DNA of 63,989 bases, counting the filler, from Basidiobolus ranarum (Eukaryota): NCBI GenBank assembly GCA_040143965.1. It is 3 parts of 3 records of this genome, joined end to end, with 100 filler letters (N's around TTAATTAATTAA, not from the genome) between each part and the next. Parts side by side here need not be neighbours in the genome. Positions count along the whole stretch, not along the records: positions 22,156 to 44,008 come from JASJQH010007070.1; 2 more parts are not named here. The stretch is one strand, 5' to 3'. The notes below the pieces were generated by a model that was not told the DNA's origin, searched no databases, and saw only the letters and a list, made by a program, of their open reading frames with translations. Position numbers and translations under genes: made by a program. How positions within the stretch are numbered: the stretch's first letter is position 1; each line of letters begins with the position of its first letter. This document shows, piece after piece, positions 22,056 to 44,108 of this stretch.

Positions 22056-22155
22056 NNNNNNNNNNNNNNNNNNNNNNNNNNNNNNNNNNNNNNNNNNNNT
22101 TAATTAATTAANNNNNNNNNNNNNNNNNNNNNNNNNNNNNNNNNNNNNNNNNNNN
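22056..22155. other. Scaffold gap (N run with TTAATTAATTAA all-frame-stop spacer)
   Basis: N runs flanking TTAATTAATTAA at 22100-22111. Confidence 0.98.
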
Positions 22156-22401
22156 GCGTTCAGCCCCACCTTCAGCAGCTAAGTGGGGGTTGCGGGTAGC
22201 CTCACCAATGTTTTGTTTGGCTGTACCCTTGGCTGAGTGAGCATTACCTGAACTCTTCTGTTCAGCAGCTAGCTTTTGTTGTTCAGCTTCTACTTGCTTT
22301 TGTTCGCCCTTGGCGACCATACTTTCACTGTTGAACATCTTTCCGACTCCTTCCTGGATATTACCAGCGGCGTTTTTAGCGGCAGCAGAGATTTTAGACA
22401 T
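22156..22401 (-). CDS. CsbD/LEA-like small hydrophilic stress protein, 3' end truncated by the gap
   Basis: MSKISAAAKNAAGNIQEGVGKMFNSESMVAKGEQKQVE..AHSAKGTAKQNIGEATRNPHLAAEGGAER contains two CsbD-like repeats; TATA-like tract upstream. Confidence 0.7.
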
Positions 22402-23244
22402 GATATATTTAGTATTGAAGATGATATTATGAGTTGGTTTTCTGGTTTTATGTGATTGAAGTTGTCTATATATATATTTTTTATCATCAAGATTTCTGAA
22501 TGCGGCTGAGAATCTGGTGACGTCTCGATTTTGCAAGACGTCAGATTTGTCCCATTTCGTTAGTACCACATGCCCAGTATTTTGGTACACTACATCACCA
22601 TATGGAGCAAATTCGGACATTCCATTTTATGTTAGGTAATTACGTATTTCGCTTATTGATTGAAATTATTAAAATTTGGCTTTAAAGTACTGTTACCATC
22701 TATAGATTAACTCAGAGAACTGGAAAGAACAGTTGATACTCGAAATATAGTAGTATATCGTTCTCAATGAAATAAAATACACTAGGAGCCCTACTTCTAA
22801 TATTAGATTGGGATTGTTGAGAAGTACATTTATTGTTCTACTATTCTAGCCAGAACCCTGAACCTGAAGAGATAGTCCGTTGAGAACGCGTACTACATTC
22901 TGCCTCATATATCCGGCAGCTTGAACCTTCTTGGTTCTACATAGTGGAGGGTCCTTCACCAGCAATATTCTCGTAAGAATTATGAACGAGAGCAATACCA
23001 GCGAACCTAGTGCCGGATGAGAAAATTTAGCAGAAATTGGATTAATAGTGGAATGAGTGATATGATGGCTAGTCCCGGCTGTGTGACTATGAAGGGAGAT
23101 ATTAGTACCAACAACATGACTATATGTCACTGGTGTCAATGTGATGGTTACTAAAAAAATGTCAGCAACTCTAACACCTACTCTTTTAGTTGAATCATTC
23201 AACTTCCTAACGTGAGCCAAAAATTTCTGCGATAGAGCCCAGCT

Positions 23245-25756: not shown

Positions 25757-25806
25757 GTTGGGTTTATATACGAATCTAACTACTGTTTCCCAGGGAAGTG
25801 GCGACT

Positions 25807-27150
25807 ATGTTTAGCTCCAAAGTATCTACTAGCCTCTATGTGCTGGTTTCTTTATTGCTCTCGACTATTGTCGTAGAGGCTGGGTACTCCGGTTGTGAGA
25901 CAGTGGGCACTCGTAAAGAGATTAGACAGATGAGAGCTGAGGAAAGGGACGCCTTCGTGGATGCAGTGAACAAATTCAAATCGACCCGGTTGTATGATAA
26001 CCTAGTGGTGACCCATTCAGGCTATTATCAGTTTGGCCACAACAGTTCTGCTTTCCTGCCCTGGAATCGATACTATCTGCGCCAATTTGAACAAAACCTT
26101 CAACTAATTAATCCCTTAGTCACTCTGCCATATTGGGTAAATGAAATTCTTTAGACCATCTAGGAAAGTTCGATGTTAACCAAATATTCTTTGTAAGGAT
26201 TGGTCACTGGATTCTCAAGCACCAGAAAGAAGCACCATTTTCAAATGGTTCGGTAGCAATGGAGGTTCTTACAAGAATTATTGCCTTAGAAATGGTGCTT
26301 TTTCGGGTTGGAAAGTGCAAAATCCAAAGCCTACTTGCTTAAGACGTGCATTCGATGGAGGAGACAAACTTTCAGCATTCCCACCACCTGAAGTTATCAG
26401 CTATATTCTGAAGGCATCGAATGACTTCAAAGAGTTCACCCGATTCATTGAACAAGGAATTCATGGACAGGTGCTACAAACAATCAACGGAGATTTGGGA
26501 ACGATTTTTGGACCAAATGAGTAAGTAACAATTCGGACTGAGTAAGAATCATTATACGACTAATATTGTGAATTTATAGCCCGCTCTACTGGCTGATACA
26601 TAGTTTTATTGACAAAATATGGGCAGACTGGCAATCGGGAAGTGTTCATCGTTTACTGAACTACAATGGTATCAACAACCAAGGAGGTAACGTAGCCCAT
26701 TGTGATTTAATCGTACCTTGGGCCGTCCCAGTATCAGCAGTACTTGATACACTCTCGCCAGGCCTCTGCTACTCCTATTCTCCCAGCGTTAGCTCCAAGC
26801 TTATGCTGCCTGATCAACAAGTTTGGAGAAATGATCATTTCTACCAATCACCTAATCCGTTGGATCGTCAAGATGGTTACCACCTTCGTAAGCCAAGAAA
26901 TTTATCCAAGCAGTGGATCGACCAGTATGCACTGAACAACGGTCAAGTACAAAAAACCGAGAATATTTTGCATTCGGTGATAGATAACTTGAATTCTATG
27001 GATTACCAATCTCTAGTGGCGTTAGATAAGAGGGCATTACTAGAGGACTCTTTGGATACAGAGTATCCCAGTGAAGTTGGATATGCTGACTTGAGACTTC
27101 CCGACTCTAGTTCATTAAACAACTTTTGCCCTGTAATAGCGCGATCATGA
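25807..27150 (+). CDS. Secreted tyrosinase-like (type-3 copper fold) protein, 3 exons, with degenerate copper sites
   Basis: Signal peptide; RKEIRQM..ERDAFVDAV, YDNLVVTH..GHNSSAFLPWNRYYL, VTLPYW|DWSLDSQAP, CLRR, IHGQVL..GD, PNDPLYWLIHSFIDKIWADWQ. Confidence 0.85.
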
Positions 27151-27747
27151 TTACTCGAATAAAGCATTATTTGAAATTCGCAGAGTTTGTTAATCGTGTA
27201 TTTCTAGGAACGTGCGTCTTTACTACACTATATAGAATAAATGGCCAAGAACTTCATCAATAAAAGTGCACAGTAAGTCGATTTATGAGGATATTTGAGC
27301 TAGTGCCATACTTAAAGAATCATCTAAATTATCTTTAAGCGCTCTGCATGCATTTCATTAATTAGCCCCTGATAAGTGGATGGTAGGGTGAATCTTCTAC
27401 CGCTCTTCCCAGTTACATAAACGAGATACATACTGATGATGTAGATTAAAAGAGACAATATTACTACAGGAAATCAATCATCATAAAGCTTGCAGAAATC
27501 ATGTAGCTTACATACTCCTACATCAAAACCTCCTAAAGATCCATGAAATGGAATATAAATACCCACCAACCTCATGTTTACCGAATCATATCAATCATTT
27601 AAGATTTTCATAAAATCTAAAGCTTCTACCTGGCTTTACATTCCATTCTCATAACCATTTGGCATTTTATAACAAACATATATTCTTACATCTAATTCCA
27701 ATTTCTCTTTGGATCTCTTATTAACTTCTTCATTTAATTCGTACACT

Positions 27748-29394
27748 ATGAAATTCACCTGGGTTTACGCTTTATTTTTCATCTCCTCCGTGGTTGCTTT
27801 ACCAACCTACAAAAAGGAAGACTGTGATAAGTCGGTAGATGCGAATGGAGGCAAGGGATCGGGTGCTGATACTTATAATTCCAAGGATTCTGCTGGTAAT
27901 GGTTCTTCATATGACACCAGTGATCATTCGGGCGAAGATAGCGGACCGACTTACGACGACCAAGATTACTCTGGTGGTGGTAAGGGTAGTGTAGAATCTG
28001 ATCATGAATCAAGCAAAAACAACGAATATGAGAGTGAAAGTCATGATGACTATTCTGGGGGCAGCGATAACCATGATGAGACATACTCTGGTGATGGCAA
28101 TGGCAGTTCCTATGACACTAATGATTACGCAGGCGATCATGAAGTCGAGTCCTACGAATACTCAAATAGCCACGGCAGTGGTGGATCTTATGACCATGAA
28201 GGCAATAACTCATATGATGTTAGTAACCATCAAGAGGAGGATGATTATGAAGGCAGTGGTGGTGGAGAATATAGTGACAATGATGACAGTGATAGTGATA
28301 GCGACTCTGATAATGAAGATTACAAGGGAGATGATGTCGAACACCATGCTGGATCATACAATACCGAGAATTACCTCAATGATAGTGGTGATGTTGATTC
28401 CTACAACAACGGGGATTATGAAGGTGAGGGTAGTGGTGGGAACGAATCTTATAACACCGAAGATTACAAAGGCAATGATGGCGGTGAGGAGGATTCCTAC
28501 CACGATGAAGACCACGAAGGTGAGGGTGATGGCGGTGTGAGCTCTTACAATAGTGAAGAACATGCTGGTGGTGATAACTCTTATAACGACGAAGATTATG
28601 AAGGTGAGGGTAGTGGTGGTAACGAATCTTACGACACCGAAGATTACAAAGGCAATGGTAGCGGTGAGGAGGATTCTTATCATGATGATGACTACGAAGG
28701 TGAGAGTAATGACGGTGTGAGCTCTTACAATAGTGAAGAACATGCTGGTGGTGATAATTCTTACAACAACGAAGACTACGAAGGTGAAGATAGTGGTGAT
28801 GAAGGCTATCATAACGCCGAGGACTATGAAGGCGAGGGCAATGGTGGTGACTCATATCACACCGAAGATTATGAAGGAGAAGGTGGTGAATCGTATGATG
28901 TCGGAGATTATTCCGATGGTAACGGGGAGCATGAGGACCACGACGCCCAAGAATATTCTGGTGATAGTGATTATGATCATTCCTATGATGCTGAAGAAGA
29001 TTATGGAGGTGCCGGTAGTGGAGAGTACAGTGATGAGGGTAAGGATGAAGGGGATCACGACGAAAGTGATGATTGCGAACATGAGACCACTGGGTACAGT
29101 AGCCATGATAACACCAAGGACCATGATGCTGAAGGGCACGAGGATTGTGACCATAAGGATATGCACCATTCACATGAGAAGGAAAGTGACTTGGCAGACT
29201 CAGGCTATGAAGAGTCTTCTCATGAATATGGAAGCGGGCAAGTCGAGGCCTATCACGATAAAGAAACCCACGAAAGTGATTGTGAACACCAAGCTGAAGT
29301 TGCCTCCGAGACTGGGAAAAGTTCTGGATACGATACCTCCGACAAATCTGGGGAGTATAAGCCAACTTACAAGTTACGCAGAAGAATACTCTGA
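27748..29394 (+). CDS. Secreted low-complexity acidic Asp/Glu/Gly/Ser/Tyr/His-rich repeat protein
   Basis: Signal peptide MKFTWVYALFFISSVVALP; long intronless ORF of SY.xEDYEGEG repeats; His/Cys-containing C-terminal part with a basic tail; TATAAA at about 27554. Confidence 0.85.
   Translation: MKFTWVYALFFISSVVALPTYKKEDCDKSVDANGGKGSGADTYNSKDSAGNGSSYDTSDHSGEDSGPTYDDQDYSGGGKGSVESDHESSKNNEYESESHDDYSGGSDNHDETYSGDGNGSSYDTNDYAGDHEVESYEYSNSHGSGGSYDHEGNNSYDVSNHQEEDDYEGSGGGEYSDNDDSDSDSDSDNEDYKGDDVEHHAGSYNTENYLNDSGDVDSYNNGDYEGEGSGGNESYNTEDYKGNDGGEEDSYHDEDHEGEGDGGVSSYNSEEHAGGDNSYNDEDYEGEGSGGNESYDTEDYKGNGSGEEDSYHDDDYEGESNDGVSSYNSEEHAGGDNSYNNEDYEGEDSGDEGYHNAEDYEGEGNGGDSYHTEDYEGEGGESYDVGDYSDGNGEHEDHDAQEYSGDSDYDHSYDAEEDYGGAGSGEYSDEGKDEGDHDESDDCEHETTGYSSHDNTKDHDAEGHEDCDHKDMHHSHEKESDLADSGYEESSHEYGSGQVEAYHDKETHESDCEHQAEVASETGKSSGYDTSDKSGEYKPTYKLRRRIL
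28414..28790 (+). repeat. Intragenic 180-bp (60-aa) tandem duplication
   Basis: gattatgaaggtgagggtagtggtgg(g/t)aacgaatctta and gtgtgagctcttacaatagtgaagaacatgctggtggtgataa each recur 180 bp apart. Confidence 0.9.
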
Positions 29395-35971: not shown

Positions 35972-38076
35972 ATGGCCCCTCTCACCGGTTAGTTCAACCA
36001 CGTATATAATCCGGGTCTATTTGGGTGTGCTAATATTCGTTGGTTTATTTCTTAACTCTTTAAACTTTTCTCTACTGTTTGAAATAGTGGACAATCTCAC
36101 TAATGGCTCGTCCTCAGCTCCTAACGGACACAAAGTAAGTATAATCATCCAGTTGAATATGTCGAAACTATGTGCACTTTTCCCAAGCAGGAATTTTATC
36201 ACACTTATGTTGTACTTTAATAACCGTTGAAATCTAGTCGCCCGTTAAGAAAGGACTTCAAGGTTATGTTGGCTTTTCTAACCTTCCCAACCAAGTTCAC
36301 AGACGCTCAGTAAAAGAGGGTTTCTATTTCACTTGCATGGTCGTTGGTACTGGATTATTGTTTACATAGCATACATGATAGAAATATACTAAAATATCAT
36401 TTCAGGAGAGTCTGGTTTGGGAAAATCTACCCTAGTGAATACTCTTTTCAATACTACACTTTACCCACCAAAACAACAGTCCCCTTTACTAGAAGAATCC
36501 CCTAAAACTGTTGAAATTCAAGCCATCAGCGCAGGTAATAGAGAGTTCAAGATAACATCAGTTAATGCTCATCCCATTATTGAATCGATTTTCTTCAACA
36601 TCCAGATATCATTGAAAGTGATGTTAATCTGAGATTAACTGTAATTGATACTCCCGGGTTTGGTGATTACATCAATAACGAAGATAGGTATGTCAATGAA
36701 GTAGATTTCTCCTATTTCCCATTTACTGATCCGATTTTTCGCTGGATAGTTGGAGGCCTATCCTTGATAATATCGAGTCACGGTTTGATGCCTATTTGGA
36801 GCAAGAAAATCGAGTTAATCGTCACCGTATGGTAGATAATCGAGTTCATGCGTGTATCTACTTCATCGCTCCTACTGGGCATGCGTAAGTGATATAGATT
36901 TGAGTGACAAAAAACTGGCTGTTCAATTCTTTGCCTTTCACCAACAGACTCAAACCTCTCGATGTCGAATTCATGAAGCGTCTTCACACCAAAGTCAACC
37001 TAATCCCAGTGATTGCCAAATCGGATACTTTGACTGAAGAGGAGATTCAAGGGTTCAAACAAAGAGTAAATATTTCACGCAGCTATCAGAGGTATCAATC
37101 AGTAACTTACTATAAATTTAGATTCTCTCCGATATTCAACATCATGGAATTGATATTTTCAAACCTTCACCTTACGCTAATGATGATCCGGAAACCATTG
37201 CGCAGAACCAAGAAGTAGTGGTATGTTTATCCGGATACTTCTTCTTTCAACTTCAACACGGTATTAATACTTCTGAGCAATAGAATAAAATCCCCTTCGC
37301 TATTGTTGGTAGCGATAAAGAAGTAGAGGTCGACGGTAAGTTGGTTCGTGGACGTAAATATCCTTGGGGCGTCATAGAAGGTAATCATATATCTCCATTA
37401 CGAAATTCACCACGCATTGGATTAAAGCGAGTTCTTTTCATTAGTCGATAATGAGGAGCATTGTGATTTTATCAAACTTCGTCAGATGCTCATCAGGTAT
37501 GGTTCAATCTACATTATTCCTATTTTAAAATCTAACTCTGGTCTGTAATAGAACTCATATGGAAGAACTTAAGGAACACAGCAGTGCCCTGATTTATGAG
37601 AATTATCGTGCTTCAAAGCTTCAAGCATTGGGTATCGAACAAGACCCATCAGTCTTTAGAGAAGTCAAGTAAGCCACGTCTCATAGTTCTTTTAGCGTTA
37701 ATTCCAGATCGTACCTAATGGATCGTTCAAGTCCCCTAGCCAAGATGGAGGAGGAGCGTAAGATACATGAAAATAAGATGGCCAAGATGGAGGCTGAAAT
37801 GAAAATGGTGTTCCAACAAAAGGTTCAAGAAAAGGAGATCAAATTAAAGCAAACTGAGGATGAGGTAGATAGTACTTGAGGGAATTTCCCATGCATATTC
37901 GACACGGATTAACTTTGAATTTCATTTCGTAGCTCTACAACCGCCACAAGGAAATGAAAGAAGCTTTGGAAAAGCAACGCTATGAATTAGAACAGAAGAA
38001 GAAGAAACTTGAGGCCAGTGAACGACCTGGTACCCCAGAGAAGAGTAAAAAGAAGACATTTGGATTTAAAAATTAA
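35972..38076 (+). CDS. CDC3: Septin, Cdc3/AspB type, many exons
   Basis: [65 protein letters not shown], and the coiled coil [21 protein letters not shown]. Confidence 0.92.
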
Positions 38077-38429
38077 ACAATGGTGGTTTATGTTCACCTC
38101 GATATCGATGCTTCTATACACGAGTTTATATCTATTTAATTCCTTTTTATTTCCATCGAAATCTTTGTTGGGGCAAGTAAAGCTCTGCTCTAACTCTTTC
38201 ATTGCCAGATTCTCACTAATCCCTTGTTAACATGATTAACTGTGGAGAGATCGAATTCAATAGCACTTACAACCCCTACTTTTCTCCATTCGTCTCTATT
38301 TTTAACTACATAATCACTTTTTTAGCACCTACGGGTTTGTTACTCTGTTAAGAGGATAAATAAAGTTTATAAATGACTCAATGTTACTTGTCAAAGCTCA
38401 TCTTCTATCGCGTGTTACTCACTCTGCAG

Positions 38430-38509
38430 AAAACTATTTCAACTCAGCATTATCCTTATCTACTTATTAAAAACTATTTCAACTCAGCATGATCCTTATC
38501 TACTTATTA
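38430..38509. repeat. 40-bp direct tandem duplication between the septin and NRPS 3' ends
   Basis: aaaactatttcaactcagcat(t/g)atccttatctacttatta occurs twice with one mismatch. Confidence 0.9.
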
Positions 38510-38783
38510 TAGTTATCGAGTAATGGCTGCTAATTTGGATTTCAATGGACTGCTTAACATCTTTAGCTTACCAATGGCTATGAAGAATGTTTTTAGGCGA
38601 TTTTGTATTGAAATGGCAAATTAAAGGTTACCTGAGTCGTTTTTTGACTTGATTTAGACTTCGTCAAACGATCTCAAATGAATTTCAAGTATAATTCAGA
38701 TTAATATTTATTAGTTATTGAGAGTGTTTAATTTGGTTCACTTTGAATGCGGCTTTATATTTACAACATAATATCCATCTGTT

Positions 38784-41700
38784 CTATTGAAGTAAGGGTT
38801 GTAATTTTTGAGCCAAGGCTTCCACATGGGGATCAAGAACAAATGAGTAGTGATGTCCGGGTACTTTGATGATCTCAATCTCTTTGGCATCCAAGATTGA
38901 AAACAACTCTGCCCAAACAAGCTGTGGATCAGGTGCCATGATATGCTTTTCAGTAGCTCGAAAAACCGTCACTTTTCCGGGATAGTGCTGTAGCTTATAG
39001 CTGTAAGTAGCCCTGAGAGTACCTACTAAAACGTCAATAATCCTTCGATCCTTGGAACTATCTGCGTCACCAGAAAAAACCCCCACTTGTCTGGATTTTT
39101 TTACTATATATGAAAGTTGCTCCTCTATGGAGAGATTCTCCAGTTCTTGTGGTTCTACTAGGTTATCGAACCCAAGCATTCCGCCATAAACCCGGGAGAG
39201 TACTCCCACGAGGTATTTATCATCAATAACCTTCCTTTGGTCGAGAATAATTGGTTTGTAGGAGTCCAAGATCGCTAGTAAACTAACTTCATGTCCTTGA
39301 CGCATTAATTGTAGCGCAACTTCTAACGCTACCACTCCTCCAAATGACCATCCACCTACTTGATATGGACCATCTGGTTGATGAGTGGTGATCACTTTGA
39401 CATAAGCATGTGCCATATCTTCTACCGTTTCTAATGGAAGTTCTCCTTCGTTAAATCCGGAAGCTTGGATTCCATAGAATGGATAATCTCCACCGAGATA
39501 ACGAGATAAGCTTACATAACAGAGAACGTTCCCTCCTGCTGGGTGTACACAGTAGAATGGACGTTTTGTACCACCGGTTTGGATGGGCACAAGATTGGAT
39601 TGAGTCACATTTCTATCCCCCTTTTTATCCTTCAAGAATTCGGATAAAGAAGCAATAGTAGAGTAAGTTAGTAAAGTGGCTAAAGGTAGATCTATACTAA
39701 ATTCCTTCTTGATTTCGGAAACAAGATTAATCGCAAGAATTGAATCACCACCTATGTGGAAAAAATCATCATAAATACCAATGCACTTTTGCTTTAAAAC
39801 TGAACTCATGATGGCTTGGAGTTCTTGTTGAAGTGCATTTTGAGGGGATACTCTCTGGCTATCTCGTTCGAAGCTAGACTCATCTGGGATTGGTAATTGT
39901 TTACGGTCTATTTTTCCGCTGGAGTTGAGTGGCATCTTAGATATAGTAACAATACTGCTAGGAACCATATAGCTAGGTAAATACTGTGCCAAATGGCTAC
40001 GCAGACGTTCTTTATCCAATTCAGTATCGGAATTTAAGGGGACCACATATGCCACGAGTTGTGGAGATGAATGACTTTTTATCACAGTTGTCACGGCTTC
40101 TTTCACTTCGGGATGTTTACCAAGTATATGCTCGATCTCCCCTAGCTCAATACGATACCCTTTGATCTTGACCTGATAATCCAAGCGATTTACATACTCA
40201 ATCACTCCATCCAAACGAAAGCGAGCCAAGTCACCAGTTCTATATAACTTCCCATTCTCTATTGAATATGGGTCAGGAATAAATTTTTCGGTAGTTAGAT
40301 CCTCTTTGTTGAGATATCCTTTTGCAACGTTTACTCCTCCAATGTAGATTTCCCCTGACATCCCAACTGGAACTGGCTGTAAATGTTGATCTAACAGGTA
40401 TATCTGCGTGTTAGCAATTGGTCTCCCAATGGGAACAGTTGTCTCTGAACTAGGTTGACATTCCCACCAAGTGACATCAATCGCAGCCTCCGTAGGTCCA
40501 TATAAGTTGAATAATTGGCACTTCGTCTCTTGGAAGAATTTTGTTTGTAGATCAGTAGGTAACACCTCTCCACTGCATACTACCCGTTTTAAGCACTGGC
40601 ACTTTTTCAAGTTCCCACTTTCAAGGAAGGCTCGAAGCATTGAGGGGACAAAATGAACGGTTGTAATATTTTCTGATATGATAAGTTCAGCAAGGTAGTC
40701 GGGATCTTTATGCCCTTCCGGCTTAGCTATGACTAAACTTGCTCCTATCATTAGAGGCCAGAAGAACTCCCAAATAGAAACATCAAAACCATACGGAGTT
40801 TTTTGCACTATAGCCTCTGTATCGTTGAGAGATAGTGCTTCTTGCATCCATAGCAGTCGGTTACAGATTCCACGATGTGTATTAATGACACCCTTAGGAT
40901 TTCCAGTAGATCCAGAGGTGTAAAGAACGTAGGCTGGGCTTTCAGGTGACCCTTGTGTAGGTGGATCAAGGGTTGACAAGGTAGAAAGCTCTGAGCAATC
41001 CCCATTAAGGCAGATCGTAGTTACACCCGAAATATCAGAGATCAAATAGGTATATTGAGTTTGAGTTAAAATAACGGGAACACGAGCATCCTTAAGTATG
41101 TATAGTACTCGCTCTGCTGGAAGCATCGGATCAATGGGCACGTAGGCACAGCCACTCTTCAATATTCCCAGTAGAGCTATGACCATCTCGAAAGAGCGCT
41201 CCATACACACACCGACCATAGTCCCTGGTGATACTTTTAATGATAACAAGTAATGCGCAAGTTGATTTGAACGACCGTTCAGTTCGGTATAGGTGAATGA
41301 TTCATTCAAGAACGTGACCGCTACTGAGTCTGGGGATTTTTGTACTTGTCTTTCAATCCAACTATGAAGTGTACGGTTCAAGTCATATTGGCGTTTAGTT
41401 TGATTCCATTCAAAGAGGATCTGGTGCTTTTCTCGTTCGGAAAGTAGTGGAATTCGAGAAATTGATATGTCAATGTTAGTTGTGACTGCTTCTAGCACTG
41501 TACAAAAGTTCCTCAGTAGCTGGTGAATGCTAGCTTCTTCATACCTGCTTCGATTGTAAATACCCCGAAGTGTCATGGAGTTTTCTTGGTCAATGACCAC
41601 CAAATTTAAACCAAACTTTGATAATTCAATGGGGTTATTCTCTCTCGTGAGCGATATTAGAGATGAATTCACGTTATACCTATTATAGAAGGACATGACA

Positions 41701-42320
41701 ATTTGATGTATAGGAGAGTCAGTGACGTCACAGTTAGGAGGGTACTCCTCTGAATACAAATGGAATGGGTATTGCTGATGACTTTTAGCTTTTTCGATCC
41801 CATCATTGACTTCTAGAAGAAACTCTCGAAATGATTTATCAGCTGAGATGGCTTGTCGAATGGGAATGAGATTACTTGTGGACGTTTTAGGAGGTGGTGC
41901 TACATAAAGTGCCGTCAAAATGTCTTCCGAGTTAGTGTAACGATGTAAGAGTACTTGAAATGCCGCTAGCATCAACGGTGTCTTTGTGGCTCCAAATTGG
42001 CGAGAAACACTCTTCAGTTCAGATAATAAATCGTTGGGGACTAACACTTCAGGGTAATATGTATCGAGGTTAGTGGAAACTCTTGGTAGCTCTAGTACGG
42101 GTAAAGGCTGCTTTAACGTTGTACGCCAGAATAACTCGTCTTCGGAGGTATATGCATTCTCAGCAGTTACTTTTCTTTCTGTATTTTCGTTGGACTGGAC
42201 GGTTTTGCCACTTAATCTTTCAAAGTCAATATTGAAGGAGTTTAATTGTTGGTAAGCATAGCCATTGATAAAGGAAGATTGAGAGGTCATTGCTGAGTTC
42301 AGAAGAGGTTGATGTACCAT
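38784..42320 (-). CDS. mysE: Intronless bacterial-type NRPS (partial C-A-T-TE), Ser-activating, MysE/shinorine-synthetase-like
   Basis: A-domain cores YTSGSTGNPKG, FDVSIWE, NLYGPTE, YRTGDL, QVKIKGYRIELGEIE, NSSGKIDR; pocket approximately DVWHVSLID (Ser code); PCP FFHIGGDSILA; TE GWSFGG. TE lid segments DDKYLVGVLSRVYGGM, DVLVGTLRATYSY and EKHIMAPDPQLVW match my recollection of cyanobacterial MysE (Ava_3855). Confidence 0.85.
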   Translation of the reverse strand: MVHQPLLNSAMTSQSSFINGYAYQQLNSFNIDFERLSGKTVQSNENTERKVTAENAYTSEDELFWRTTLKQPLPVLELPRVSTNLDTYYPEVLVPNDLLSELKSVSRQFGATKTPLMLAAFQVLLHRYTNSEDILTALYVAPPPKTSTSNLIPIRQAISADKSFREFLLEVNDGIEKAKSHQQYPFHLYSEEYPPNCDVTDSPIHQIVMSFYNRYNVNSSLISLTRENNPIELSKFGLNLVVIDQENSMTLRGIYNRSRYEEASIHQLLRNFCTVLEAVTTNIDISISRIPLLSEREKHQILFEWNQTKRQYDLNRTLHSWIERQVQKSPDSVAVTFLNESFTYTELNGRSNQLAHYLLSLKVSPGTMVGVCMERSFEMVIALLGILKSGCAYVPIDPMLPAERVLYILKDARVPVILTQTQYTYLISDISGVTTICLNGDCSELSTLSTLDPPTQGSPESPAYVLYTSGSTGNPKGVINTHRGICNRLLWMQEALSLNDTEAIVQKTPYGFDVSIWEFFWPLMIGASLVIAKPEGHKDPDYLAELIISENITTVHFVPSMLRAFLESGNLKKCQCLKRVVCSGEVLPTDLQTKFFQETKCQLFNLYGPTEAAIDVTWWECQPSSETTVPIGRPIANTQIYLLDQHLQPVPVGMSGEIYIGGVNVAKGYLNKEDLTTEKFIPDPYSIENGKLYRTGDLARFRLDGVIEYVNRLDYQVKIKGYRIELGEIEHILGKHPEVKEAVTTVIKSHSSPQLVAYVVPLNSDTELDKERLRSHLAQYLPSYMVPSSIVTISKMPLNSSGKIDRKQLPIPDESSFERDSQRVSPQNALQQELQAIMSSVLKQKCIGIYDDFFHIGGDSILAINLVSEIKKEFSIDLPLATLLTYSTIASLSEFLKDKKGDRNVTQSNLVPIQTGGTKRPFYCVHPAGGNVLCYVSLSRYLGGDYPFYGIQASGFNEGELPLETVEDMAHAYVKVITTHQPDGPYQVGGWSFGGVVALEVALQLMRQGHEVSLLAILDSYKPIILDQRKVIDDKYLVGVLSRVYGGMLGFDNLVEPQELENLSIEEQLSYIVKKSRQVGVFSGDADSSKDRRIIDVLVGTLRATYSYKLQHYPGKVTVFRATEKHIMAPDPQLVWAELFSILDAKEIEIIKVPGHHYSFVLDPHVEALAQKLQPLLQ

Positions 42321-44008
42321 GCTTCAATGCTCAATACTTTTCACAGAAATTATTCCAATCGACTGCGTTGGTGTTACATCCCCCTGATTAATAACCTTTA
42401 TCAGATATTCGTCATCACACAGTTGCTTGGATCTTTACTACAATCAGCTCTTTAGCTTATCATTCAATAGCACGTATGACTAGCCATCAAAGTGAGCAGG
42501 CAGTATGAGCGATGTGTGTCACCTACACTATATATATATCAGAATATTGCACCGAATAGTCCCCGCCCTCCCCGATTTGGATATAAATAAATAGCAACTT
42601 CAGATCGACGATCTCATGTGTTATATCAGGTGGCATAAAGTCCAACTTATTCCAACTTAATTAGCATACTTTAACTTGATTTGATTGAACCATTTGGCTA
42701 ACTTAAACGTAATGTGATTTAGCCTAACCCTGTGGAGATGATTTATACTTTTAGAGTGTCACTAACTCACAATGAGTTAAACAGTCAAAAATTCATTTAG
42801 GGTTGGGTAAGTTAAACAGTCAAAAATTCTTTATATAAACATAAAAAGTTTAATACAATAATTTTTTCAAAATCATAGCACACTCGTTTTAGGACTCAAG
42901 TAAGTACCCCATTTAAAATAAGAGTAGAGCACAAACATAGTACAAAGTGAGTTTAAACATTTCTAAAATCACTTTACTGTATTCATAAGAAATCAAGATA
43001 AAAAGGTGACTTCCAAATGAGCTAACTATCAATTAAAGGTAGCATTATTAATATTGTTATGTCGCTGTGGCTGAATGAACCAGTATTGACCAAAGATCTC
43101 GAAGAATTGCGTATCTAGATTGCGTATCTAGATAAATTTGCATATATATCTTTCAGATTCATGCGGATTTGGAGTGATAGTGAGTTTGAGAGATGCTATT
43201 ATTTTGATTTCTGAAAGCTTTAGCTGGGGGATGATACTCTAGTAAGTAATGAATCGCATACCAATATAAGATGTTATCTTAGCTTGAATGTGATCATATA
43301 TTTCTGCAACTTACTATGCATTTACCTAAACTATCTAACTATATTATTACAGGCGTAATCAATGCTATAATATGGGAGCAGCTACGAACACCTCGGCATA
43401 TATTTTTACAAACAAAAAGAAGGGTTTGTGCCGACAATCGCCATTGATTTGCTCTCTGATCCTTGCCCTCTGTATATAGAGTTGAATAACGATAATAAGA
43501 AAAATACAAGCAATTTAGAATCCCAAATAGAGATCGAATAATGTACCCATGTTGAGCATATAGAATAGTATTAGATGGTTGGTTGAATAGAGATCATGGT
43601 TATCAGGTCAAATCTAATGGTGAAGTGTTTTCACTAATGGCAGTAACGACAGAATAACTCCTCTTAACTTGATTATCGTATGGAAGTGTATGTTGATTCT
43701 CGTATGAAAGTGGCCTGTTTGTCACAACAACATCGAAATCAAACTTCTCAATTGAGTCGCATTGTCTTTATGAAACCCAGTAAAATAGTAACAACACTTG
43801 GATTATAAATTCTATCTATTTAGCAAGGGCATTTATTGTTCTAATCAATTATTTTACAACACCTTGAGTTTTGTTTGATTTTCAGTCGTTGTTTCTTAGG
43901 GTTAGGGGGGAGACAGTCACCCAAAGGTGAAATCTTTATTTCAAACAAAACAAAGAAGCCATAACTACTTTTGTAGTTTCTTAACTAATGTATGGAGATC
44001 AGGAGTAT

Positions 44009-44108
44009 NNNNNNNNNNNNNNNNNNNNNNNNNNNNNNNNNNNNNNNNNNNNTTAATTAATTAANNNNNNNNNNNNNNNNNNNNNNNNNNNNNNNNNNNN
44101 NNNNNNNN
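44009..44108. other. Scaffold gap (N run with TTAATTAATTAA spacer)
   Basis: N runs flanking TTAATTAATTAA at 44053-44064. Confidence 0.98.

Follow-up and report, generated by a model that had tools for sequence, protein, structure and literature searches.

The locus and its genomic setting

The window (the whole stretch of DNA analyzed; 63,989 nucleotides, filler included, from the Basidiobolus ranarum assembly GCA_040143965.1) holds 19 open reading frames of at least 150 residues, the longest of which is a nonribosomal peptide synthetase (NRPS) gene of the MysE type. It is a single open frame on the minus strand with an ATG start, 1178 codons, and a stop (38784-38786). Because stops should make up ∼6% of codons at ∼40% GC by simple arithmetic, the chance of 1178 stop-free codons is ∼1e-33. 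The gene lacks introns and is colinear with its bacterial homologs (884 residues, 13 gaps), in agreement with an earlier interpretation made from the DNA alone (hereafter the sequence-only reading), which had described an intronless frame of 1178 residues. The features of the region are as follows.

22056-22155, no strand: second artificial joiner, N44-TTAATTAATTAA-N44 (sequence)
36238..38076, plus strand: septin gene, split into 10 or more short coding pieces whose frames alternate (Pfam PF00735, Septin)
38077..38783, no strand: intergenic spacer of 707 bp separating the septin and NRPS genes, which converge (sequence)
38784..42320, minus strand: MysE-type NRPS gene, whole (ORF, Pfam, colinear alignment to P0263)
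42186..42320, minus strand: N-terminal ∼45 residues without a homolog in relatives, start at M1 or M11 (alignments to relatives start at residues 17-64)
42321..44008, no strand: region upstream of the NRPS gene to the contig end, 1,688 bp (no ORF of at least 100 residues, no mysC)
44009..44108, no strand: artificial contig joiner of N44, a 12-base six-frame stop palindrome, and N44 (sequence)

The window consists of three contigs joined by N44-TTAATTAATTAA-N44 linkers with stops in all six frames; its Velvet, SURF4, and Sec23 genes are therefore carried by contigs other than that of the NRPS gene. Physical linkage to the gene is confined to the contig at 22156-44008, whose 21,853 bp are exactly the length of the longest contig on record for this protein. 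The assignment of the host to fungi is drawn in part from the artificially joined contigs; the Sec23 exon on one of them matches Basidiomycota, Mortierellomycota, and Glomeromycota equally well, at 74%, within the longer length bin only. Within this assembled contig the NRPS and septin genes are arranged tail to tail, and their stops are separated by 707 bp without a single N. The septin gene begins near 36238 and ends with a stop at 38076; one of its pieces matches the Pfam Septin profile with E = 3e-18. The claim that an intron-rich septin gene lies about 700 bp away in unbroken sequence thus holds for this gap-free contig, but the window as a whole is not one piece. The contig also carries genes for a P5-type ATPase, which is eukaryotic, and NuBaID, and an intron-bearing tyrosinase gene. 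Hexamers of the AATAAA type occur 23 to 72 nt past the NRPS stop, inside the spacer.

The third-position GC content (GC3) of the NRPS gene is 0.366, compared with 0.36 to 0.44 in host exons and 0.26 to 0.30 in five of six cyanobacterial mysE genes. The RSCU correlation does not discriminate between the two (0.747 to host exons; 0.747 to cyanobacterial mysE), and the lean toward the host is limited to GC3 and some codon pairs. A tblastn search of the whole window for mysA, mysB, and mysC, with the proteins of locus L001 as queries, returned only noise (best E 0.13), as the sequence-only reading had stated for these genes. The bacterial context, in which all three stand alongside, is accordingly not found in the 21.9-kb contig, of which 1,688 bp are visible upstream of the gene. 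The contig tyrosinase was also considered as a gene cotransferred with the tyrosinase of the Scytonema mys neighborhood (L089) and was rejected (28% over 114 residues); seven other neighbors of L089 gave no matches.

Domain architecture and active sites

The domains of the encoded protein (herein the window protein), all on the minus strand, are as follows.

41415..42161: half condensation (C) domain, C-terminal lobe only, residues 54-302 (Pfam Condensation, profile 187-456 of 456)
40311..41354: adenylation (A) core, AMP-binding, residues 323-670, pocket DVWHVSLID plus K803 (Pfam, motif anchoring)
39912..40139: C-terminal adenylation subdomain, AMP-binding_C, residues 728-803, with the A10 lysine (Pfam)
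39633..39827: thiolation (T, carrier) domain, PP-binding, residues 832-896, GGDSI with Ser860 (Pfam)
38787..39608: MysE-type thioesterase (TE), residues 905-1178, Ser992 (GWSFGG), Asp1019, and His1157 (Pfam, alignment)

Since the Condensation match is limited to positions 187 to 456 of the profile, the architecture is half-C/A/T/TE. The sequence-only reading had given A-T-TE; these three domains are indeed present, but Pfam places the half C domain before them and the full architecture was misjudged. The N-terminal lobe of the C domain, with its HHxxxDG region, is missing from the protein. No trace of it as an upstream exon or pseudogene was found by tblastn with one query against the whole window, nor with seven C-domain N-lobes against 42150-44008 (best E 3.0).

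The A-domain pocket, read at motif-anchored positions, is DVWHVSLIDK, which fits the pocket proposed earlier (DVW..H..SLID) and departs from the DVWHISLIDK of mys-linked enzymes at a single one of its 10 positions; 19 Ser-type relatives have DVWH[I/F/M]SLIDK. We take this pocket to be of the Ser type on the basis of Stachelhaus codes and statements in the papers. It is not exclusive to MysE, being present also in the outgroup modules L110, P0092, and L007. All four TE segments singled out in the sequence-only reading are present and are conserved in each of nine aligned cyanobacterial MysE thioesterases. Ser88, Asp115, and His253 (TE numbering) are among the 104 invariant columns of the TE alignment, and the window protein retains both this triad and the carrier-domain serine. 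The Pfam Thioesterase match covers residues 921-1028; the C-terminal half of the TE diverges from the generic profile. The protein therefore has what marks a MysE: a single A, T, TE module in which a C domain is optional, MysE-type TE motifs with Ser-Asp-His, and a Ser-type pocket, one of the pocket types (Ser, Gly, or Pro) reported for MysE. C-bearing MysE forms are mentioned in the available text of PMC10666671 and PMC12232313.

Relatives and their gene neighborhoods

The window protein is 56% identical to P0263 (75% positives) over 884 residues, and 66% identical in the TE alone. P0263 is an 888-residue A-T-TE protein that NCBI and UniRef list under Trichormus variabilis ATCC 29413; from source name, length, and architecture, it is taken to be the characterized MysE (Ava_3855), so that the likeness to this enzyme noted in the sequence-only reading is real. 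With MysE (Anabaena/Trichormus variabilis ATCC 29413), an NRPS-like shinorine synthase, the window protein shares the A-T-TE core, 9 of 10 pocket positions, the TE motifs, the Ser/Asp/His triad, and the carrier serine; it differs in its ∼300 extra N-terminal residues (the half C domain), its eukaryotic contig, the absence of adjoining mysABC, and its long branch.

Identity to other NRPSs falls into tiers. Among the 63 of 141 proteins that spanned the A-T-TE region, identity is 55 to 57% to 15 MysE-type proteins, 48 to 51% in a second tier, and at most 45% to generic modules. TE identity is 61 to 65% to MysE from genomes and up to 72% in metagenomes; its distribution over the 80 loci kept has a gap, with 22 loci at 55% or above and 58 at 42% or below, so that MysE-type loci span 55 to 72% and generic NRPSs reach at most 42%. 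Generic termination modules (AB3403, 4zxh; EntF, 5ja1; SrfA-C, 2vsq) have the domain order and core motifs in common with the window protein, and 4zxh aligns over residues 58-1174, but they stay below these limits and have no mys neighbors. For most TEs of solved structure, the match is confined to TE residues ∼5 to 120.

In 5 of the best 11 cyanobacterial genome matches, homologs of mysA-mysB-mysC stand immediately before the NRPS relative (49 to 57% identity); the same arrangement is found in Nostoc parmelioides and on seven metagenome contigs. The order DHQ-synthase-like protein, O-methyltransferase, PRK06849-family protein of 435 to 456 residues, NRPS recurs at L001, L088, L102, L103, L105, L106, and L112-L118. 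An NCBIfam search of the neighbor genes found no mys-specific model, the third gene matching PRK06849 “hypothetical protein,” so the mysA/B/C labels were assigned from gene order, Pfam domains, and the way the papers describe Ava_3858-3855; no solved structure matched the third (mysC-position) gene by sequence. Two cyanobacterial members, L107 and L108, lack mysABC within ∼8 kb. Among the best 79 NRPS loci across all prokaryotes, the only one with mys genes is the top match.

Cyanobacterial MysE variants with a half C domain are L102 (G167, 1138 residues), L089 (Scytonema sp. NUACC26, 1151 residues), L107, L108, and L120. They have the same half-C/A/T/TE layout as the window protein and the same Pfam break (profile ∼187-191 to 456; 191-456 in L089). 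L102, which lies directly after mysABC, is 50% identical to the window protein; L089 is 44% identical, and the pocket of its group is of the glycine type. Because the trees place the window protein (P0001) with neither half-C group, its truncation seems to be independent.

Of the other 119 proteins among the best 120 TE matches, 54 carry an organism name: 53 are cyanobacterial, and one, the only other eukaryote-labeled member, is P0334 from the chromerid alga Vitrella brassicaformis CCMP3155. This 1372-residue protein is of the MysE type, with serine-type motifs visible in the alignment; unlike the window protein it has a full-length C domain, and the two are 43% identical overall. In a collection of 15 billion proteins, the window protein was seen once, on a single contig.

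Phylogeny and sequence constraint

In a 62-row tree the window protein lies inside an 18-row clade (support 97) and a 20-row clade (100). A careful 41-row tree also places it inside the MysE core clade (90/89) and the family (100/100), and the mixture-model tree (LG+C20) recovers the MysE family at 100/100 and a Ser-type clade at 81/89. An approximately unbiased (AU) test, for a group chosen after the tree was seen, rejects a clade of the 25 core rows that leaves out the window protein (p = 0.0024). The protein is thus nested among sequences of the cyanobacterial donor lineage, and its TE does not group with generic lipopeptide TEs, the outcome that would have spoken against the sequence-only reading. 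The exact sister shifts with sampling, being L118/P0015 in the 41-row tree and Vitrella in the LG+G4 and mixture-model trees. The grouping with Vitrella has support of 99 (LG+G4) and 89/72 (LG+C20), but it unites two long branches and is flagged as potentially spurious; the two proteins have the same residue at 7 of 21 conserved columns changed in both, compared with 7 of 12 for L118.

The 33 cyanobacterial rows share 261 invariant columns; the window protein keeps 244 of these (93.5%), whereas it matches 278 of 593 variable columns (46.9%). The 17 losses are mostly conservative changes. Cyanobacterial rows left out in turn keep at least 96.3% of invariant columns, more than the window protein, and its end branch is ∼3 times the median (0.67 vs. 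0.22 in the 41-row tree; 0.73 vs. 0.23 under the mixture model). The long branch and the lower share of invariant columns could reflect relaxed constraint.

Alternative explanations

The best explanation, to which we assign a probability of ∼0.7, is that this gene is a serine-type mysE of cyanobacterial descent that entered a eukaryotic genome, most probably a fungal one, by transfer and now stands alone and intron-free beside a septin gene. The acquisition from cyanobacteria proposed in the sequence-only reading is supported by the identity to P0263, the MysE-family trees, the mys-linked relatives, and the eukaryotic flanks. An ordinary NRPS termination module, of the kind known from siderophore or lipopeptide synthesis, that has a serine pocket but no relation to mycosporines is hardly credible: the C-A-T-TE order is generic, three outgroup modules have an identical Ser-type pocket, and NCBIfam gives the window protein only generic NRPS names, all under the cutoff, but the protein sits inside the MysE family at 100/100, on the MysE side of the gap in TE identity, and its closest relatives have the mys genes that 78 of the best 79 generic loci lack. 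It is also improbable that the gene is a piece of cyanobacterial DNA, derived from a contaminant or an associated organism, that was misjoined to a eukaryotic contig. The contig ends just 1.7 kb from the gene, one contig is the sole record of the protein, and a Nostocales-like GC content (∼0.38 to 0.41) would be near that of the host; yet the closest known sequences are just 50 to 60% identical, and no second bacterial gene flanks the NRPS, whereas 12 related loci have mysC immediately upstream. Moreover, the ORF-free flanks of 0.7 and 1.7 kb are unlike dense bacterial DNA, GC3 is that of host exons rather than of five of the six cyanobacterial mysE genes, and the septin stop follows within 707 bp without an N.

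A rival that we regard as unlikely, while giving it real weight, is that the transferred gene is resident and open but lies outside any host mycosporine pathway, whether for want of an acceptor, because it is silent or decaying, or through repurposing to other serine-transfer chemistry. The missing mys genes on the contig and in the window, the long end branch with its 17 lost family-invariant columns, a C domain without its catalytic lobe, and the record from a single contig all fit such a gene, as does the description of fungal clusters, in the available text of PMC10057719, as DDGS-OMT-ATPG only, giving aminocyclohexenones. Against this, the 3.5-kb frame is still open in AT-rich DNA, invariant columns are kept at twice the rate of agreement at variable ones, every catalytic residue is retained, and the C-domain N-lobe is lost as well from cyanobacterial enzymes inside mys clusters (L102, L089).

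Proposed pathway and implications

If the transferred MysE is expressed and primed by a host phosphopantetheinyl transferase (PPTase), it would be expected to act as the cyanobacterial enzyme does in the account available from PMC10666671. The A domain would adenylate L-serine, and the T domain would take it up in thioester linkage to its phosphopantetheine arm; the unusual TE would then move serine to C1 of the mycosporine core, which in cyanobacteria is mycosporine-glycine, and an O-to-N rearrangement would yield the imino-mycosporine shinorine, a UV sunscreen, as the likely product. The half C domain would be a structural remnant with no catalytic role. MysD performs the same step, adding a second amino acid to C1 of mycosporine-glycine, with an unrelated fold and mechanism in which the acceptor is phosphorylated (PMC10666671, in part). 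A cluster such as the DDGS-OMT-ATP-grasp mycosporine cluster of Phaffia rhodozyma would supply the acceptor ring if the host had one; the text available from PMC10057719 describes the Phaffia cluster without a further amino-acid-adding enzyme, and tblastn did not find it in the window. Cyanobacterial MysE is functional in Yarrowia and S. cerevisiae given an Sfp-type PPTase (PMC12232313, in part).

In the literature searched we found no report of a native eukaryotic MysE, although supplementary tables, which lay outside the search, might list one, and no account of early-diverging fungi acquiring an NRPS from cyanobacteria. The full-C, half-C, and no-C forms make a natural series for probing the role of the vestigial C domain, and a MysE already adapted to a eukaryotic cell is relevant to shinorine production in yeast (PMC12232313, in part). 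Vitrella may have acquired a MysE of this lineage as well, which, if true, would point to a MysE branch spreading among eukaryotes.

With an intact, intron-free MysE copy on a fungal-type contig, a fungus may have acquired by gene transfer a biosynthetic step believed to be missing from fungi. A 2023 study describes, in the text available from it, only DDGS, OMT, and ATP-grasp genes for fungal mycosporines and only oxo-mycosporines as products (PMC10057719), a view that an intact and constrained MysE on a fungal contig contradicts. The production of imino-mycosporine-like amino acids (MAAs) by a fungus thereby becomes a testable question. We suggest only tentatively that this fungus combines the products of its own DDGS, O-MT, and ATP-grasp enzymes with the captured cyanobacterial MysE to make shinorine-like imino-mycosporines; if so, it would provide the first example in fungi of a native NRPS step that forms MAAs.

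P0001 Resembles Cyanobacterial MysE

P0001, the MysE-like nonribosomal peptide synthetase (NRPS) of Basidiobolus ranarum, was searched against a 5.8-billion-cluster protein collection; 7998 candidates were scored and 1546 matched at E ≤ 1e-20, the best 120 of which carry bacterial names only. At full length, P0001 is matched best by cyanobacterial C-A-T-TE proteins of ~1320 to 1360 aa (49 to 51% identity). An 888-aa A-T-TE protein found in a TE-only search (P0263; source name T. variabilis ATCC 29413), taken to be Ava_3855, is 56% identical to P0001 (75% positives, 13 gaps, over 884 residues). The four TE segments that the sequence-only reading had given as nearly those of Ava_3855 are conserved in all nine aligned mys-linked thioesterases, as are TE Ser88, Asp115, and His253 (P0001 Ser992, Asp1019, and His1157); the likeness claimed in that reading is real. 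TE identity to P0001 splits the 80 kept loci into two groups (22 at 55 to 72%; 58 at ≤42%). Solved TEs, like the Pfam model, match mostly the first 120 TE residues only; the MysE hallmark is the C-terminal half.

A prokaryote search (one genome per species) gave 79 loci. In the top one, from a Microcoleaceae metagenome-assembled genome (L001), a DHQ-synthase-like gene, a Methyltransf_3 O-methyltransferase, and a 456-aa PRK06849-family protein directly precede the NRPS, the same order as Ava_3858-3855 (mysA-B-C-E in the available text of PMC10666671); mysA/B/C-type genes were found at 0 of the remaining 78. A P0001 match at E ≤ 1e-250 occurs in 11 of 401 sampled cyanobacterial genomes: five directly after mysABC, one with mysC within 7 kb, and five with none within ~8 kb. 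In Nostoc parmelioides, mysABC is followed by an 893-aa A-T-TE protein 57% identical to P0001, and Scytonema sp. NUACC26 has, 5.5 kb from mysABC, a 1151-aa half-C form with the same Pfam break as P0001 (profile positions 191 through 456 in the Scytonema protein). In metagenomes, mys genes adjoin the NRPS at 7 of the best 26 TE loci examined.

The extended Scytonema neighborhood (L089, 1-20000; L091, 5696-10614) holds this glycine-pocket half-C MysE together with a tyrosinase, an FAD monooxygenase, a second O-methyltransferase, EamA and BT1/MFS transporters, a TauD-family dioxygenase, and two mysC-like genes before mysB-mysA. A metagenomic NRPS after mysB-mysC (L112, 3254-6375) shows the highest identity seen, 60% to P0001 residues 515 through 1177; the part matching residues 150 through 512 is only 40% identical and in a different frame, which could reflect a frameshift or the exchange of half of the A domain.

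P0001 Groups within the MysE Family

The A-T-TE region was cut from all stored proteins spanning it (63 of 141) and one duplicate was removed; later subsets were hand-picked. In the resulting 62-row tree (LG+G4, quick), P0001 belongs to clades of 18 rows (SH-aLRT 97) and 20 rows (100), each of which contains all six mys-adjacent rows. A careful 41-row tree including metagenome rows makes it sister (93/99) to L118/P0015, a full-C form adjacent to mysABC, with a core clade at 90/89 and the MysE family at 100/100. By an approximately unbiased (AU) test, a clade of the 25 core rows that leaves out P0001 was rejected (p = 0.0024); this group was named post hoc from the tree.

Besides P0001, one public eukaryote record holds a MysE-type protein: P0334, labeled Vitrella brassicaformis CCMP3155 (a chromerid alga), a 1372-aa family member with a full C domain. 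Its identity to P0001 is 57% in the TE and 43% over the whole protein, and the two tend to group together. Adding it (59 rows, LG+G4) paired P0001 with P0334 at 99, a join that was flagged for long-branch meeting; a careful 32-row LG+C20 PMSF tree gave (L118,(P0001,P0334)) at 86/72 and 89/72, with the Ser-type clade at 81/89 and the MysE family again at 100/100. Shared derived states leave the P0001-Vitrella link unsettled. The proposed comparison of MysE with generic NRPS modules thus places P0001 firmly in the MysE family, and these trees give good support to its position nested within the cyanobacterial sequences; its exact sister is not fixed, being L118/P0015 or the Vitrella protein depending on the tree. 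Published accounts, in their available text, describe MysE as cyanobacterial only, and our literature search found no report of a native eukaryotic MysE; supplementary tables could list eukaryotic homologs.

The Gene Lies on a Eukaryotic, Probably Fungal Contig

P0001 is encoded by one open frame of 1178 codons from ATG (38784-42320, - strand), the longest of the 19 window ORFs of at least 150 aa.

Pfam domains of P0001 (residues)
54-302, Condensation (profile positions 187-456 of 456 only)
323-670, AMP-binding
728-803, AMP-binding_C
832-896, PP-binding
921-1028, Thioesterase

The A, T, and TE domains described earlier are present, but the bare A-T-TE layout is not: since the Condensation profile matched only at 187 through 456, the layout is half-C/A/T/TE. 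PDB and NCBIfam searches returned generic bacterial NRPS names only.

Blocks of N44-TTAATTAATTAA-N44 occupy window positions 22056-22155 and 44009-44108; the TTAATTAATTAA 12-mer equals its reverse complement and gives a stop in all six frames. These blocks are artificial joiners with no biology. The window is therefore at least three contigs strung together and gene neighborhood across joiners is unreal; only genes within 22156-44008, the 21,853 bp between the joiners, are linked to the P0001 gene in the assembly. This length agrees to the base with the contig size recorded for P0001.

Other features of the P0001 contig
22156-22626, -, CsbD-like ORF at the very start (PF05532, E = 1e-13)
25780-27150, +, tyrosinase with its coding sequence in three parts, 12 kb from the P0001 gene
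27673-29394, +, acidic repeat protein, a 573-codon frame with a signal-peptide-like start, then Asp/Glu/Gly/Ser/Tyr-rich repeats
NuBaID/zf-C3HC protein
P5-type ATPase
septin, at least 10 short coding pieces, ending at 38076

The septin and NRPS genes lie tail to tail with 707 bp and zero N between their stops, in agreement with the unbroken ~700 bp reported previously. The P0001 gene is flanked by 0.7 and 1.7 kb without ORFs, and AATAAA-type hexamers after its stop codon are weak evidence. GC and GC3 are similar across all three contigs. Velvet, SURF4, and Sec23 lie on the neighboring contigs, not P0001's; for Sec23, the best named matches are fungal (74%). We take the host to be a eukaryote, in all likelihood a fungus. 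GC3 of the P0001 gene is 0.366, that of host exons 0.36 to 0.44, and that of cyanobacterial mysE genes 0.26 to 0.30 in five of six (L118, 0.50). Several discriminating codon pairs take the values seen in the host; RSCU as a whole correlates equally well with the host and cyanobacterial mysE pools.

Upstream mysC, present in 12 related loci, is absent on this contig. As the CsbD family is mainly bacterial, the CsbD-like ORF might be another gene of foreign origin, or just a fungal representative of the family. The tyrosinase shares only 28% identity with the one near Scytonema mysE, which gives no hint that it and mysE were transferred together. A Pfam search assigned the acidic repeat protein to no family; in its low-complexity DNA (27673-29394), long ORFs overlap on both strands.

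Catalytic Features and the Half Condensation Domain

The pocket of P0001 (DVWHVSLIDK) differs at one of 10 positions from that of its mys-linked relatives (DVWH[I/F/M]SLIDK); a half-C subclade has DILQLGLIWK and another clade is proline-like, codes that we take to denote Ser, Gly, and Pro. These three types mirror the MysE classes reported in the available texts of PMC10666671 and PMC12232313. The Ser pocket alone is no MysE marker, because three outgroup modules also have it. The proline-like sister clade (L109, L121, L125, L131, P0335, and P0336), some of whose named members are marine filamentous cyanobacteria (Moorena, Okeania), corresponds to what the available text of PMC12232313 calls "proline-type mysE"; in L131, mysC lies ~5 kb upstream.

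P0001 has an intact carrier serine and TE triad. It retains 244 of the 261 columns (93.5%) invariant across 33 cyanobacterial Ser-type rows (leave-one-out range for those rows, 96.3 to 100%), whereas among the 593 variable columns it has the majority residue in only 278 (46.9%); the 17 changes at invariant columns are mostly conservative. Substitutions on its long branch (0.67 to 0.73; median, 0.22 to 0.23) have therefore stayed away from the sites that are fixed in the family, a sequence pattern that indicates purifying selection together with a degree of relaxation or adaptation.

No remnant of the C-domain N-lobe was found upstream of the P0001 gene by tblastn. In our reading of a MAFFT alignment of seven full-C N termini (L001, P0007, P0009, P0014, P0243, P0244, and P0334), the HHxxxDG equivalent keeps the first His and the Asp in 7/7, the second His, which is catalytic, in 1/7, and the Gly in 0/7; the canonical motif is missing from all seven. 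Because full-C, half-C, and C-less forms interleave on the tree, the MysE C domain looks vestigial, which suggests repeated erosion, and the half C domain of P0001 is no argument against activity. By analogy with cyanobacterial MysE, as outlined in the available text of PMC10666671, P0001 would adenylate serine and thioesterify it onto its carrier domain, which fungal phosphopantetheinyl transferases (PPTases) may prime, as they can prime MysE in yeasts (PMC12232313, available text); its TE would then move the serine to C1 of a mycosporine, yielding an imino-mycosporine.
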